Source of the DNA: a virus | Reading direction: 5' to 3' (one strand) | UHGV virus genome: UHGV-0287771 | Length of the DNA: 25,755 nt | Shown: positions 20,532-25,755 of the stretch, piece by piece | Position numbering within the stretch: the first letter of the stretch is position 1 | Layout of the letters: each line of letters starts with the position of its first letter | Notes under the pieces: model-generated | Databases searched by the model: none | Told to the model about the DNA's origin: nothing | The model's input: the letters and a program-made list of their open reading frames with translations, nothing else | Position numbers and translations under genes: made by a program

Positions 20532-21017
20532 TTATCTGATGTTACTGCTACTGTTGCATGTTACCGTGTTTTCAAATCCTGAATTGCAGTTTGTATATGT
20601 GTCAACGCGTGTTGGGTAAGGTTGAGTTATAACAGGCTGGCGCGCTTTTTGCTCAATTGCTTGCATAGTGTTTACAGCCTGATAATTCAATAAAGCCTGC
20701 TGGAATGCTTGGCTTTGTGCTATTTGTTGGGCTTGTTCTTGGCTTTGTAATTGAACATAAAGATTCTGAAGCTCAAGTCTTGCCTGTGCGTCACTTATCT
20801 TGCCTTCATCGACACCTTGCCCGAGCATCTTTGCAGCAAGGACATACAGCTTAGGTGTTGGTGCTGATGCCATGCGTGAGTCGTTTTTCACACTGGCATC
20901 AAGGCAATTAGCCATATCGCTAAGCTTTTGATAGCGTTGTTCGCAACTTGCTTGATAGTCACTTACTTTTGCGCATCCAACCAGCAGAATCGGGATAATT
21001 AACAGTGATTTTTTCAT
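20532..21017 (-). CDS. lipoprotein (candidate superinfection-exclusion/moron protein), 161 aa
   Basis: Strong SD AAGGAGAG 8 nt upstream of ATG (minus strand, 21017); signal peptide with lipobox MKKSLLIIPILLVGC; Gln-rich helical body; in the slot of the P22 sieA/immI region. Confidence 0.7.
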   Translation of the reverse strand: MKKSLLIIPILLVGCAKVSDYQASCEQRYQKLSDMANCLDASVKNDSRMASAPTPKLYVLAAKMLGQGVDEGKISDAQARLELQNLYVQLQSQEQAQQIAQSQAFQQALLNYQAVNTMQAIEQKARQPVITQPYPTRVDTYTNCNSGFENTVTCNSSSNIR

Positions 21018-21087
21018 ATGGTTAACTCTCCTTAGTTTTTCACAGGATATCATGAAGGCAATACCATTTTAGCCGGAAACTAGATTT

Positions 21088-21489: not shown

Positions 21490-23763
21490 ATGACTGATAC
21501 CAATTACCTGGTCTCTATGCCGTCCACTCCTTTTTCGGCGCCACGAGCATTTAAGTCAGTGGCGAACGGGAAAATCTACATCGGAAACCCTGACACTGAT
21601 CCGGTAAATCCTGCCAACCAAATCCCGGTATATGTCGTTAATGAGGATGGCTCCGAGGTTCAGGTTTCACAGCCAATCATCATTAACGCCGGCGGCTTTC
21701 CGGTCTATAACGGCCAGATTATGAAGTTCATCACGAAACAGAACTTCAGTATGGCGGTCTATGACGCATATGGAGCGCAGCAATTTTATTGGCCCGATTT
21801 ATCTCGCATAGATCCAGATACAGCATACAACACCATCATAAATAATATTGGCGCACAAGATGGACTGAAGTATGTTGGTCAGTGCTCAGATTTAACAGCT
21901 CTCAGGGCTATTGAGCCAACCGTTTCTAACCAGCGAATTAGTGTCGCTGCATACGCTCCCGGGTGGGCCTCGCTGACAGGTGCGCCTGTTGGCGGTGGTG
22001 AGTTTTATTATGACCCCAATGATACGACATCTTCTGATGACGATATTTTTATTTTTGTAACGGCTGGCGGTAAGCGCTGGAAGCGTGCTTGCTCCGGCAA
22101 AAAAATCTGCCTGGAATGGAAAGGGGTAAGGCCTGGTGATGATGCAGCTCCGGCATTAAATGCTATCGGCACTTACCTGAATAACAAGGCCATCGCAAAA
22201 GGTACTGTTTCCGGGCTTCCTCGAGTGCATGTCGGCGCAGGCGTTTACCCCCTGTCAGATACTGTCAACCTCACATACGCATTTCGCATAAAGGCGGTTG
22301 GTAATGTAGAATTTACGACAACGGACTGGGATAGCACGGTTGCAAAAGATATTTTCACTATCGCTAACCCTGCAAATATGCCTGCAGTTCCTGACAAGGG
22401 GTATGCAAGCGGTGACCCGTGGCTTAATGGTTCTGATGGCACCATTTTAATCACTGGTCCCGTCTATGATGCTGCGGTCACAAACAATGTGGTTGGCGTT
22501 GGTGTGGGAAACCTCGTCACCGGGCGGACGCCCGTTCGTGGTAATGTGATGCATGGCGTTTCAATCCGTTACTGTGGCAGTGCGATTTACCTGCGCATGC
22601 GTCGTCTGTACCTGACGTCATTTAGTCATGTTCACTGCGAGCTTAATAACACACATATTACCTGTCCTAACCAGTCAGGCACCGAAGACTCCGGGGAGCG
22701 TATTGCATTTCATGAGTGCGTTTTTGGCGGGTGCAGGAATCAGCACGTTTATGTATATATGACACCGGCTCTGCATTTTGAATCATGTTCATTCGACTTT
22801 GCTCAGGGGAGCGGTATTTATCTGGATGGGATATCTGAGTATGGTCTTTTTTCATTCACAAACTGCCATTTTGAGAACTTCAATAACTACCTTATTAATG
22901 CCCAGACCGGTTCTCGGGTCACTCTTCTGATTACTAATTGTGATGTATTCAATAACAGCCAGACTACGCCGGTTACCGCAGCATCTGCTTCATCCCCTTC
23001 CCGTCCTATGTTTAATCTTGCCAACGGCGGGAATGTGGTTATTAACGGATTTAAACTGAACTATTCATATCGACCTCTTGGTTCATTGAATATGCTGGTT
23101 TCGCCCGAGACACAAACTGCAGATACAAGAACACGAGTATCAGTTAACGGACTGACGGCGGGTGATAAGTCAATGACACCGTGCCCCGCAGCAGCGCATA
23201 TCATGAACCGATCAAATGATTTTAGCGGGGAAACTGTGGGTTCCACAATTACCAGCAAAATCGCATACACAACAACACATGTTCAGCCAGTACAGGACAT
23301 TGCAAGTTCGTGGGGCTCAGGGATGTCCGCATCTGTTGTCGCTGACGGTAGCACAAAGGGTTTGCAGATGGTGTCAGCAGACAATACTAACTTCGGTTAC
23401 ATTCAGCCAAAAACTGCGATTCCTGTTTCGCCAGGGCGCGCCTACTCAGCATATTTCAGTATCCAGAAGTTGCTGGCGGCTGGCGGAATCAACTGGTCTG
23501 TGAGCTATCTGTGGTACGACAAAGACGGGAACCTGTTATCTAACGATAGAGCTCTGTCAGGTCGGTTTTCCAGTGTATATAACGACACGACATTGCCGGG
23601 ATATTCAACAGATGCTACAGCAAACGGTAATAGAAAGTTGAGCACAACCATGTGCGTACGCATTGCGCCCCCCGGCGCTGCTTACTGTCGCCCATACTTT
23701 AGTGTGTCGTCGTTTACTGGAACTATAAATATCGTCAATTTTTTGATGTGGGAGTATCAGTAA
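21490..23763 (+). CDS. tailspike protein (P22 gp9-type N-terminal head-binding domain with divergent receptor-binding body)
   Basis: First ~110 aa resemble recalled P22 tailspike N-terminus ([35 protein letters not shown]...); remainder is beta-rich (Asn/Gly/Thr/Ser-rich) without recognised identity. Confidence 0.85.
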
Positions 23764-23981
23764 TGAATATCTATCTTGAGCCAGGCACCAGCAATGTGTT
23801 TGTTCTCTCCCCGGAATCTCCGGGGGAGGCGTACGAACACATTGGCGAGGTCAGTGATGATGTATCGCTGTCCCCTGTCATTCCTGATGAAATCTATGAA
23901 GTAATAGCGGCGTATAACGAAAGCCTTTTATCTACTGGGCTTGAGCTGAACATGAGAGGGTCATATTCCTCCTCCAATTGA
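23763..23981 (+). CDS. hypothetical acidic protein, 72 aa, translationally coupled to the tailspike
   Basis: ATG 23763 overlaps the tailspike stop (TAATG); acidic composition; no family recognised. Confidence 0.45.
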   Translation: MNIYLEPGTSNVFVLSPESPGEAYEHIGEVSDDVSLSPVIPDEIYEVIAAYNESLLSTGLELNMRGSYSSSN

Positions 23982-24019
23982 TAGATATAACCTGTCTTGA
24001 TCAGTCAATTCACAACATA

Positions 24020-24039
24020 TACTGTATATAAAAACAGTA
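24020..24039 (+). promoter_or_regulatory. LexA operator (SOS box) overlapping a likely promoter
   Basis: TACTGTATATAAAAACAGTA: CTGT-N8-ACAG with AT-rich spacer, a near-perfect match to the E. coli LexA box consensus TACTG(TA)5CAGTA; 15 nt upstream of the next start codon. Confidence 0.75.
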
Positions 24040-24054
24040 TTGTCGGGTGTGGAT

Positions 24055-24294
24055 ATGATAAGACGTAACGCCATAGCGGAGGCTTTCAGAGCCTCCATTT
24101 CTATAAATCCTAAAGGTTATCAATACCTTTACACGGATTCTTTCATCTCCGAACTACAGCGGAGGGGTATCCATTTCTCAGAGAAGGAGGCTAACAACTG
24201 GATATCGAGAGAGCAGACGTACTTTGTCGACAAGACGCCGGACCATAGCGAAAACAGGTTGTGGATGCTGGCGAATATGGGGAGGGTGATCTAA
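24055..24294 (+). CDS. hypothetical protein, 79 aa, first gene of the LexA-box operon
   Basis: ORF directly downstream of the LexA box; stop overlaps the start of the next gene (TAATG); function not recognised. Confidence 0.5.
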   Translation: MIRRNAIAEAFRASISINPKGYQYLYTDSFISELQRRGIHFSEKEANNWISREQTYFVDKTPDHSENRLWMLANMGRVI

Positions 24295-24611
24295 TGGGCT
24301 TTCCTTCACCCGCGACGGATTACGTTGAGCAGCGACTGTCCGTTAACTCGATCTGCAATGTCGGCCCTAACACCCGCGTTTTCGAAAGGGATGGCGGTTA
24401 TGTTGTGCTGGATATTTCCCTGAAGCCAAAGCAGGGTAGTCAGGTTCTGATCCAGCACGGCGGCGGTACGGAGCTTGCCACGCTGAGAGGAAAGTCACTG
24501 ATAACCGAAGACGGCGAAGCGATCGAGGGAGATGCTCTCGACGATGTCACTGTCATCGGTGTCGTGACGTTTACTATCTGCGATGTTCGTTCTGATAATT
24601 CTATTATTTAA
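24294..24611 (+). CDS. UmuD'-like (S24 LexA/UmuD-family fold) protein, apparently lacking the catalytic Ser
   Basis: Starts M-GFPSPATDYVEQR, matching the UmuD/MucA motif GFPSPAADYVEQR just after the UmuD self-cleavage site; GGGGAGGG SD 7 nt upstream; no G-D-S-M serine motif seen by eye, Lys retained in RGKSL. Confidence 0.6.
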   Translation: MGFPSPATDYVEQRLSVNSICNVGPNTRVFERDGGYVVLDISLKPKQGSQVLIQHGGGTELATLRGKSLITEDGEAIEGDALDDVTVIGVVTFTICDVRSDNSII

Positions 24612-24622
24612 CTGGGGTATAT

Positions 24623-25288
24623 ATGGCGCTGAAGCTATTAGCCAATAATAACGCAAAGAGTGTTCTCGCTGCGGGTATTAGCGCGTCCGCTACCGTTATT
24701 ACCGTGGGGTCGGGTGCAGGTGCTTTATTCCCCGCGCCGGTATCGGGAGAAAGCTATTTCAAATTAACGGTAACCGACGCCGCAACGAAAACAATCAACG
24801 AAATTATGCATGTCACATCTGTATCTGGTGACGTGATGACGGTAATTCGTGGTCAGGAAGGAACCACGGCGCGCGTATGGTCAACGAATGACATTGTCGC
24901 AAATTTAATGACCGCCGGCTCATTGTTATCGTTCCTGCAGATCAGCAATAACCTGTCAGAAATTAAAGATGCCGGTGAGGATGCGGTAAATGAAGCCCGT
25001 TATAACCTCGGAATATCTGATTCCTCTGGTTTTGTCGGGCGTTCTCTTGGCGCTCCAAAAGCGTTCTATGCAAACGGCACCTATACGCGCTCTCCTCTGG
25101 CCCGTTATGCAAAAGTAACGTTGGTCGGAGGTGGCGGCGGCGGTGGCCGGGCGGGTTCTCAGGCCGGTATTGCTGGCGCAGCTCCCGGATCCGGTGGTGG
25201 TGGCGCGTATGACCTTGGGTTTACCGGTACGGCATTTACCGGTGGTGATGGTGCTACTGGCATGGCGATCGTGGAAGAATTCGCGTAA
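24623..25288 (+). CDS. Gly-rich protein, 221 aa; N-terminal part reminiscent of phage fibre N-termini; possibly a truncated gene
   Basis: ORF 11 nt after the UmuD'-like gene; C-terminal poly-Gly/Gly-X stretch (VGGGGGGGRAGSQAGIAGAAPGSGGGG...); followed by ~430 bp without a convincing ORF before the att core. Confidence 0.5.
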   Translation: MALKLLANNNAKSVLAAGISASATVITVGSGAGALFPAPVSGESYFKLTVTDAATKTINEIMHVTSVSGDVMTVIRGQEGTTARVWSTNDIVANLMTAGSLLSFLQISNNLSEIKDAGEDAVNEARYNLGISDSSGFVGRSLGAPKAFYANGTYTRSPLARYAKVTLVGGGGGGGRAGSQAGIAGAAPGSGGGGAYDLGFTGTAFTGGDGATGMAIVEEFA

Positions 25289-25717
25289 TGGCTTACACTC
25301 CTGCACGACCATCGATGTAATCAGCCCACCACTGCATCATCTACCTGCGCTTATCGAGATACTGAGCATGGTTGTAAATCCCACGCACAGATCCGCCGTT
25401 GGCATGAGCGAGTTGCACTTCGATAGTTTCGTGATGCACCAAGTGATCAAAGTCATGAAATTTAACATCCAAGCCTCCATCGATCGATACTTGCGGTAGT
25501 TGATAAGGAAAAACTATGGTACACAAAGCGTTGCACTGGATTGCAAGGCTTTGTGCTCTTCTGTGGATGTGTGGCTACATGTTTGAAGATCGTTGTGCCG
25601 CATTTGTGACATACACATGACAACATCATGCATCAACTTTCTGTTTGTGCCATCAACTATAGCTTAGTGAATGCGGTTAATGCTTGCTAAAACAGATAGT
25701 TATGATTGGTGCTACAG

Positions 25718-25755
25718 ATTCGTAATGCGAAGGTCGTAGGTTCGACTCCTATTAT
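25718..25755 (+). other. 3' portion of a tRNA-Thr(CGU)-like gene (anticodon loop, T-arm); candidate attR core, truncated by the window end
   Basis: ATTCGTAATGCGAAGGTCGTAGGTTCGACTCCTATTAT contains the anticodon-loop sequence with CGT and a canonical T-arm GGTTCGACTCC; the 5' half of a tRNA is absent upstream (sequence diverges before 25718). Confidence 0.6.

Follow-up and report, generated by a model that had tools for sequence, protein, structure and literature searches.

What is the role of a UmuD'-like protein that a temperate phage encodes close to its attachment site, behind an SOS-type promoter and with no adjacent gene for UmuC? This question is raised by the last genes of the virus genome UHGV-0287771, a stretch of 25,755 nucleotides (nt), called the window throughout, which represents the late-gene half of a P22-like Escherichia coli prophage. 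A preliminary description of this DNA, made from the sequence alone, had pointed to a near-consensus LexA box followed by an operon of three genes, here called g1, g2, and g3, and had guessed at an antirepressor-type induction switch, a modulator of the SOS response or mutagenesis, or a defence or toxin module. We found that the conserved unit at this site is a cassette of two genes, g1 and g2, rather than three. In the reading that we favour, g2 would serve as an SOS-timed surrogate of UmuD' acting through the host DNA polymerase V (Pol V) pathway, and we give this general reading a probability of about one half.

The promoter of the cassette

The LexA operator, TACTGTATATAAAAACAGTA, lies at 24020-24039 on the plus strand, and the ATG of g1 (24055) follows 15 nt downstream. 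The operator differs from the perfect LexA palindrome at two positions; no other site in the window has three or fewer mismatches to the palindromic consensus, and 100 shuffled sequences gave none. The same 20-mer serves as the operator of both umuD and sbmC in E. coli (PMC3009722, Table 4), and the MG1655 sequence confirms the identity with the umuD operator. Both the box and the 15-nt gap to the first gene, as they had been described, are therefore real features of the sequence. A -35 hexamer, TTGATC (23997-24002, plus strand), precedes by 17 nt a -10 hexamer, TACTGT (24020-24025, plus strand), which consists of the first six bases of the LexA box; as read from the sequence, the operator thus overlaps the core promoter. 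The umuD gene of MG1655 is preceded by the same hexamers at the same spacing (TTGATC-N17-TACTGT). On the one hand, the cassette and the E. coli umuDC promoter share the 20-bp operator, the -35 hexamer, the length of the 17-nt spacer, and the position of the -10 hexamer inside the box. On the other hand, the spacer and the flanks are unrelated, and the E. coli operon starts with full-length umuD instead of g1 and contains umuC.

This layout is conserved among the relatives, for which we fetched a set of 83 non-redundant loci. A CTG-N10-CAG box occurs at the equivalent place in 71 of the 83, and TTGATC stands exactly 17 nt before the box in 53 of these 71. When the region was aligned with relatives in a four-way comparison, the flanks could not otherwise be aligned, and only TTGATC, the LexA box, and the ribosome-binding region were invariant. 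The cassettes of a metagenomic contig (L085) and of phage HK140, with proteins only about 30-50% identical, keep this layout too. A generic promoter scan missed the cassette promoter, because TACTGT is a poor -10 hexamer by consensus. LexA control of this promoter is strongly supported in silico, and we infer that LexA would bind at 24020-24039 in vivo.

Transcription may also reach the cassette from upstream. No terminator-like site was found in the interval between the tailspike gene and g1, and therefore late read-through probably expresses the cassette in lytic growth too. A terminator-like hairpin inside g1 (24078-24096) is no more than expected by chance.

Several relatives carry insertions or deletions at the promoter. 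Eight of the 83 loci carry a group II intron (about 1.9 kb; 5' GTGCG; Rfam RF02005, 186.6 bits) exactly at the boundary of bases 19 and 20 of the LexA box, with the promoter and the box left intact upstream of it; these loci are L016 (3797-5765), L019, L026, L036, L040, L079, L080, and L082. The same intron 3' end, together with ltrA, lies directly upstream of the plasmid-borne umuD in Klebsiella pneumoniae pKP424-2 (L100:1-150). From these positions, umuDC-type SOS operators appear to be the homing target of this intron, which does not occur in the window. In L033 (5700-5765), the 3' half of the LexA box alone remains after an unrelated insertion. In L051 (5950-6001), g1 is deleted and a complete TTGATC-N17 LexA promoter stands 39 nt before g2.

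The conserved gene pair

In the window, g1 (24055-24294, 79 amino acids (aa)), g2 (24294-24611, 105 aa), and g3 (24623-25288, 221 aa, glycine-rich) all lie on the plus strand, and the coordinates first given for them and for the box hold on re-reading the sequence. The ATG of g2 overlaps the TAA of g1 (TAATG), a junction from which we judge that the two genes are translationally coupled, and g3 starts 11 nt past the g2 stop. The tightly packed layout that led to the proposal of a three-gene operon is thus confirmed; the third gene is not part of the conserved unit, since it follows g2 in only about one-third of the loci that reach far enough past g2.

The pairing of g1 and g2 is much more constant. 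We examined the DNA context of seven distant g1 homologues (L085, L086/L087, L088, HK140 gp27-gp28, mEp390, Erwinia phage Midgardsormr38, and Pantoea phage AH07), and in all seven the next gene is UmuD'-like, with a start that overlaps the g1 stop or lies a few bases from it. The pair sits 3' of the tail genes in all phage and prophage loci examined except the short contig L085. Where the sequence extends further, att and int come next, or host lepA at the prophage end (L086/L087). Phages with the g1-g2 arrangement between the tail genes and att/int include HK140, mEp390, Klebsiella phage RothC, and the Erwinia and Pantoea phages. The second gene is not of one kind only: HK140 carries a long HumD form of 129 aa behind g1 and mEp390 a short form, so that the two forms are interchangeable within the cassette.

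Purifying selection acts on both genes, with median ratios of nonsynonymous to synonymous substitution rates (dN/dS) of 0.12 and 0.10 over 2,262 pairs. Deletion of g1 in L051 and its truncation in L018, L054, and L056 have left g2 intact, and phages P1 and N15 have no g1. Accordingly, we consider g2 to be the core gene and g1 to be accessory. The two genes of the window also differ in their history. Compared with L002, L003, L025, and L064, the g1 allele of the window (MIRRNAIAEAF...) shows saturated dS (1.5 to >3) and a dN of 0.21-0.25, whereas g2 shows a dS of 0.4-0.6 and a dN of 0.03-0.08. The g1 allele has thus moved much further from the common allele than g2 has, which implies a recombination junction inside the cassette.

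The cassette is common in temperate enterobacterial phages. A single g2 cluster at 90% identity holds 3,207 members, mostly from Klebsiella, and cassette-like DNA was found in 146 of 5,426 complete E. coli genomes.

The UmuD'-like protein g2

The second gene had been described as UmuD'-like, and the searches agree. g2 matches phrog_3469, 'UmuD-like protein', with an E of 5e-47, and a profile of the short forms aligns by hhalign with 99.1% probability over 100 columns to a profile of UmuD, P1 HumD, N15 gp26, and HK140 gp28. Its beginning, M-GFPSPATDYVEQR, aligns to UmuD 25-37; therefore, after the Met, g2 begins at Gly25, the first residue of processed UmuD'. Against solved structures, residues 2-43 of g2 alone align, to UmuD 25-66. 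A protein search found relatives of g2 in 114 phage-collection records, with identities of 84-97% in Klebsiella phages, about 50% in mEp390, Eeyore, and phiES15, and 32-34% in HK140, HK639, N15 gp26, and the HumD of P1 and P7. By these similarities, g2 belongs to the phage HumD/UmuD'-like lineage of P1 HumD, N15 gp26, and HK140 gp28.

Within this lineage, the short form has lost the protease site. A deletion of 12 residues removes the Ser60 loop (SGDSMIDGGIS in UmuD), a second deletion removes six residues, and the column of UmuD Lys97 holds Leu. As judged from the alignment, the Ser-Lys dyad is lost and g2 is catalytically dead. The UmuD-specific N-terminal arm, GFPSPAxDYVEQR, is retained: G2, F3, P4, S5, P6, A7, D9, and Y10 are invariant across all short forms compared, and S5, P6, A7, and D9 are invariant also in the long forms and UmuD, while P4 and Y10 differ in L085 alone. 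The predicted structure of g2 has the beta-fold of the S24 family.

Comparison with known UmuD'-like systems

One of the closest known systems is HumD of phage P1. The P1 record annotates a LexA site before humD and carries the note that HumD 'functionally complements E. coli UmuD''; the title of a 1999 paper by McLenigan states the same. Like g2, P1 HumD and N15 gp26 are UmuD' homologues without the N-terminal 24 residues, and they start with M-GFPSPA. P1 HumD further shares with g2 the preceding LexA site, the absence of an adjacent UmuC gene, and 33% identity over residues 1-100. The differences are also clear. P1 HumD has 129 aa and g2 has 105, without the Ser60 loop and the second segment and with Lys97 replaced. 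Ahead of g2 stands a coupled gene of 79 aa, for which P1 and N15 have no counterpart, and the cassette lies at the prophage end by att, whereas P1 humD lies beside lxr/phd-doc. Because the P1 HumD lineage has no UmuC neighbour, the absence of UmuC here is the normal state of the lineage. The preliminary description had presented the module as one of unknown function; it is not without precedent, since g2 falls in the HumD lineage, and a lone phage UmuD' without UmuC was already known. The short, dyad-less form with a predicted winged-helix partner is a variant of the LexA-controlled phage HumD module.

The cassettes of HK140 (gp27-gp28) and mEp390, both members of the Hendrixvirinae, have the same organization. 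They share with the window the TTGATC-N17-TACTGT LexA promoter, a 79-aa g1 homologue, the TAATG junction, a UmuD'-like gene, attP, and int. The UmuD'-like protein of mEp390 is a short form of 106 aa, and that of HK140 is the long form of 129 aa. Unlike the window, both phages bear a divergent DinI-like gene, and neither has g3. Neither record assigns a function to the g1 homologue. In both phages (L089:1910-2262 in HK140 and L092:1909-2262 in mEp390), the DinI-like gene diverges from a short intergenic region that holds the LexA box, and by this arrangement one operator may control both the DinI-like gene and the cassette. The g1 homologue of mEp390 (L092:2262-2501) is unannotated, and a doubtful minus-strand open reading frame (ORF) is annotated over that stretch.

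These comparisons bear on an opposite view of g2, in which it is a degenerate HumD that performs no lesion bypass and instead acts as an inhibitor or decoy. In this case, g2 would tie up UmuC, UmuD, or RecA* and dampen Pol V mutagenesis or the UmuD2C checkpoint during phage replication. The loss of the active-site loop and of six further residues, with a score far under the HumD cut-off, would suit such a role, and the strictly conserved UmuD-specific arm is what is expected of a competitor for the same partners. In HK140 and mEp390, moreover, the cassette is paired with the DinI-like gene, whose product would be a modulator of RecA*. Against this view, the catalytic residues are dispensable once UmuD' has been made, so the loss of the dyad is no argument against activity. 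The annotation of P1 credits its long-form protein with complementation of UmuD', and long and short forms share the same cassette behind the same g1. We therefore regard the decoy as rather unlikely, and the UmuD' surrogate remains the reading that we prefer.

A further SOS operon with a small gene ahead of a UmuD homologue is impCAB of plasmid TP110, in which ImpC is DinI-like and ImpA is full length and is followed by the UmuC-like ImpB. The cassette differs from it in that g1 is not DinI-like: it has no Pfam match to support this, hhalign against the DinI-like protein of HK140 gives 0.2%, and the predicted topology is a winged helix. We accordingly rejected g1 as a DinI/ImpC-like protein.

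The small protein g1

The first gene had been reported as unknown, and no relative of known function was found in family, cluster, and profile searches. g1 is predicted to adopt a winged-helix topology, with a conserved C-terminal tail that is predicted to be disordered. Its only PHROG match is phrog_3893, of unknown function, and the only Pfam match at E≤1 is a weak one to DUF6104. All of its 275 close clusters are from Enterobacteriaceae and unnamed. A profile search of 1.84 billion representatives gave 129 matches, nearly all of about 79 aa. Some g1 homologues are named 'putative invertase' or match HTH_7, and we traced this to a fused C-terminal extension in P0073 and not to g1 itself. A relationship with P1 Lxr was also rejected (hhalign 0.1%).

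The coupling of a predicted winged-helix protein to an S24-type protein suggests another reading, that of a LexA/CI-like regulator in two pieces parted at the autocleavage site, with g1 as the winged-helix DNA-binding piece and g2 as the S24-type piece for dimerisation. Alternatively, g2 could act as a lone C-terminal domain and poison the dimerisation of S24-type repressors; in both cases the cassette would be an SOS-made transcription switch or antirepressor. Besides the pairing itself and the repressor-like structural matches, the g1-g2 junction GRVI(M)|G resembles GRVAA|G of LexA. However, the GRV motif is absent from the other branch of g1, which has NPNGG. The LexA N-terminal domain was rejected as a relative of g1 (hhalign probability 0.03-0.15%), Foldseek gave no significant structural match, and the putative recognition helix of g1 bears invariant acidic residues. 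Genuine unsplit homologues were not found either: the long matches P0329, P0399, and P0402 look like frameshift or gene-call fusions. In addition, P1 and N15 have g2 homologues without g1. The guess of an antirepressor-type switch meets a further difficulty in at least one carrier, Klebsiella phage RothC, where it is not needed, since the CI repressor of this phage already has a helix-turn-helix and a Peptidase_S24 domain. Considering these points, we regard a split regulator or dimerisation poison as unlikely. In a stricter form of this reading, the break between g1 and g2 would fall precisely at the autocleavage site of a LexA/UmuDAb-like protein, and under SOS control the phage would make the equivalent of a pre-cleaved repressor, with the winged helix and the S24 dimerisation domain as separate pieces. 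Together these would form a new kind of switch, triggered by damage and aimed at host or phage targets, and would not serve as a polymerase accessory. This form seems to us quite unlikely.

A different precedent exists for a small protein that acts on a partner of this family. In UmuDAb-DdrR of Acinetobacter and in gp7-LexA of GIL01, a small protein binds an S24-family protein and alters its activity (PMC11332147). By analogy, it is possible that g1 acts on g2. These systems have no sequence relationship to g1-g2, and their targets are DNA-binding repressors, whereas g2 has no DNA-binding domain.

The glycine-rich protein g3

g3 resembles a tail fibre. Its residues 7-107, a domain of the fibre-anchor type, are homologous to the N-terminal part of the PDB 8jov tail fibre (E 4e-9), and both its N- and C-terminal ends match PHROG tail-fibre families. 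In relatives, a 343-aa 'glycine-rich domain-containing protein' follows g2, and g3 is 96-100% identical to it except that a block of 122 aa is missing. This block lies inside the Gly_rich_2 domain (PF21722), for which the 343-aa relative scores 52.5 bits and g3 of the window 12.2 bits, below the cut-off of 24.3. By this comparison, g3 is damaged in the window by an internal deletion of 122 aa.

One could suppose that all three genes work as one unit, for example with g3 as an SOS-induced fibre-like effector or receptor-blocking protein that g1 and g2 control or assist. The spacing speaks for such a unit, because g3 begins 11 nt after g2 wherever it is present, in the window and in relatives. 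It also accompanies g1-g2 behind tail genes of different kinds: in the window a P22-type tailspike gene, and in relatives genes of the DUF2612, SGNH-hydrolase, and sialate-esterase types. However, a g3-type gene follows g2 in 18 of the 83 fetched loci and is missing from about two-thirds of those that reach past g2. HK140, mEp390, and the Erwinia and Pantoea phages have none, and the copy in the window has lost 122 aa of its Gly_rich_2 domain. A three-gene unit is therefore improbable, and g3 is an optional, tail-fibre-like passenger of the cassette.

Setting in the prophage

The cargo position assigned to the module was correct, as it occupies the slot between the tailspike gene and att. The tailspike gene (21490-23763) encodes 757 aa with the Head_binding domain of the P22 tailspike and a beta-helix. 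Directly upstream of it is a gene for an Arc/Mnt-type repressor. On the other side, the final approximately 250 bases of the window match the thrW-type att sites of HK446, mEp213, and related phages; the match at 25480-25755 comprises about 250 bp with 95-97% identity to the thrW-type attP regions of HK446, mEp213, and mEpX2. ARAGORN called no tRNA gene in the window, where only the 3' part of the thrW-type tRNA falls. An Rfam scan of 23400-25755 (E≤1) gave no RNA element. A short remnant of an integrase gene (25341-25526, minus strand) lies 3' of g3 and before the thrW-type att stretch, and its counterpart in NZ_AP050512 is labelled 'integrase, incomplete'.

Slots between the tail genes and att commonly house accessory and defence genes, and the cassette would be stress-induced; both points could suggest an anti-phage defence or toxin module. 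The evidence from the genes does not agree with this. No significant match was found in a search of PADLOC-DB, where g3 alone gave a match at chance level (E 0.023, 11.7 bits), and family searches found no toxin, nuclease, NTPase, or membrane domains. Also, g2 is clearly homologous to UmuD'. We consider a defence or toxin function very improbable, and this guess of the preliminary description found no credible match to sustain it.

Two further ORFs lie near the tailspike gene. A 72-aa ORF (23765-23981, plus strand) begins 2 nt past the tailspike stop and finishes upstream of the LexA promoter. It has no family match in Pfam or PHROG, its 90% cluster holds two sequences, and it may be a rare orphan gene or no gene. 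A 173-aa ORF (20532-21053, minus strand) lies between the final long plus-strand ORF of the late block and the Mnt/Arc gene, a position that we take to correspond to sieA on the P22 map. From an internal Met it starts with MKKSLLIIPILLVGC, which by eye resembles a lipoprotein signal with a lipobox. A Pfam search with this ORF gave no match; by its signal-like start, it may encode a superinfection-exclusion-type lipoprotein.

Discussion

Among the three functions guessed for this module, a modulator of the SOS response or mutagenesis fits best. As we picture it, LexA in a lysogen would keep the cassette silent by binding the umuDC-identical operator that overlaps the -10 hexamer. DNA damage would derepress the cassette at the same time as the host umuDC operon, and thus together with host UmuC, in addition to any supply by late read-through. 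Made without the N-terminal 24 residues, g2 would not need RecA*-mediated self-cleavage, and with its UmuD-specific arm it retains the S24 fold through which such proteins dimerise. It would then bind host UmuC, or UmuD/RecA*, and thereby provide or tune lesion bypass on damaged DNA after induction. UmuC, UmuD, and RecA* are the likeliest partners of g2, and a partnership with UmuC could change mutagenesis in either direction. g1 would be a small winged-helix partner, kept in a fixed ratio with g2 by translational coupling and presumably in contact with it. We guess that it serves as an adaptor or stabiliser of g2.

Several results weigh against this proposal. g2 scores 46.6 bits against the NCBIfam HumD family (NF051876), for which the cut-off is 120, and it stays below the threshold of Pfam S24 (PF00717) with no Pfam match, whereas the long forms of P1 and HK140 pass PF00717. 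The confidence of the g2 model is moderate (predicted local distance difference test (pLDDT) of 69, from a shallow alignment), and the model matches non-catalytic repressor C-terminal domains, those of 186 CI and lambda CI, as well as it matches UmuD'. About 20 residues of the HumD/UmuD' globular domain are missing from g2, and UmuC binding may have been lost with them. Finally, no result of this study explains why lesion bypass should need a conserved partner of predicted winged-helix fold.

In summary, the cassette is widespread yet uncharacterised, and what is known of P1 HumD leaves two of its features unexplained. The short form has dropped the protease site and kept the UmuD-specific arm under strong purifying selection, and it is coupled almost constantly to an uncharacterised protein of predicted winged-helix fold. 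By carrying copies of UmuD', among other routes, prophages can remodel both the SOS response of E. coli and Klebsiella and their stress-induced mutagenesis. If g2 activates host UmuC without the delay imposed by RecA*, lysogens could be more mutable under SOS-inducing antibiotics; if g2 blocks UmuC, they could be less mutable.

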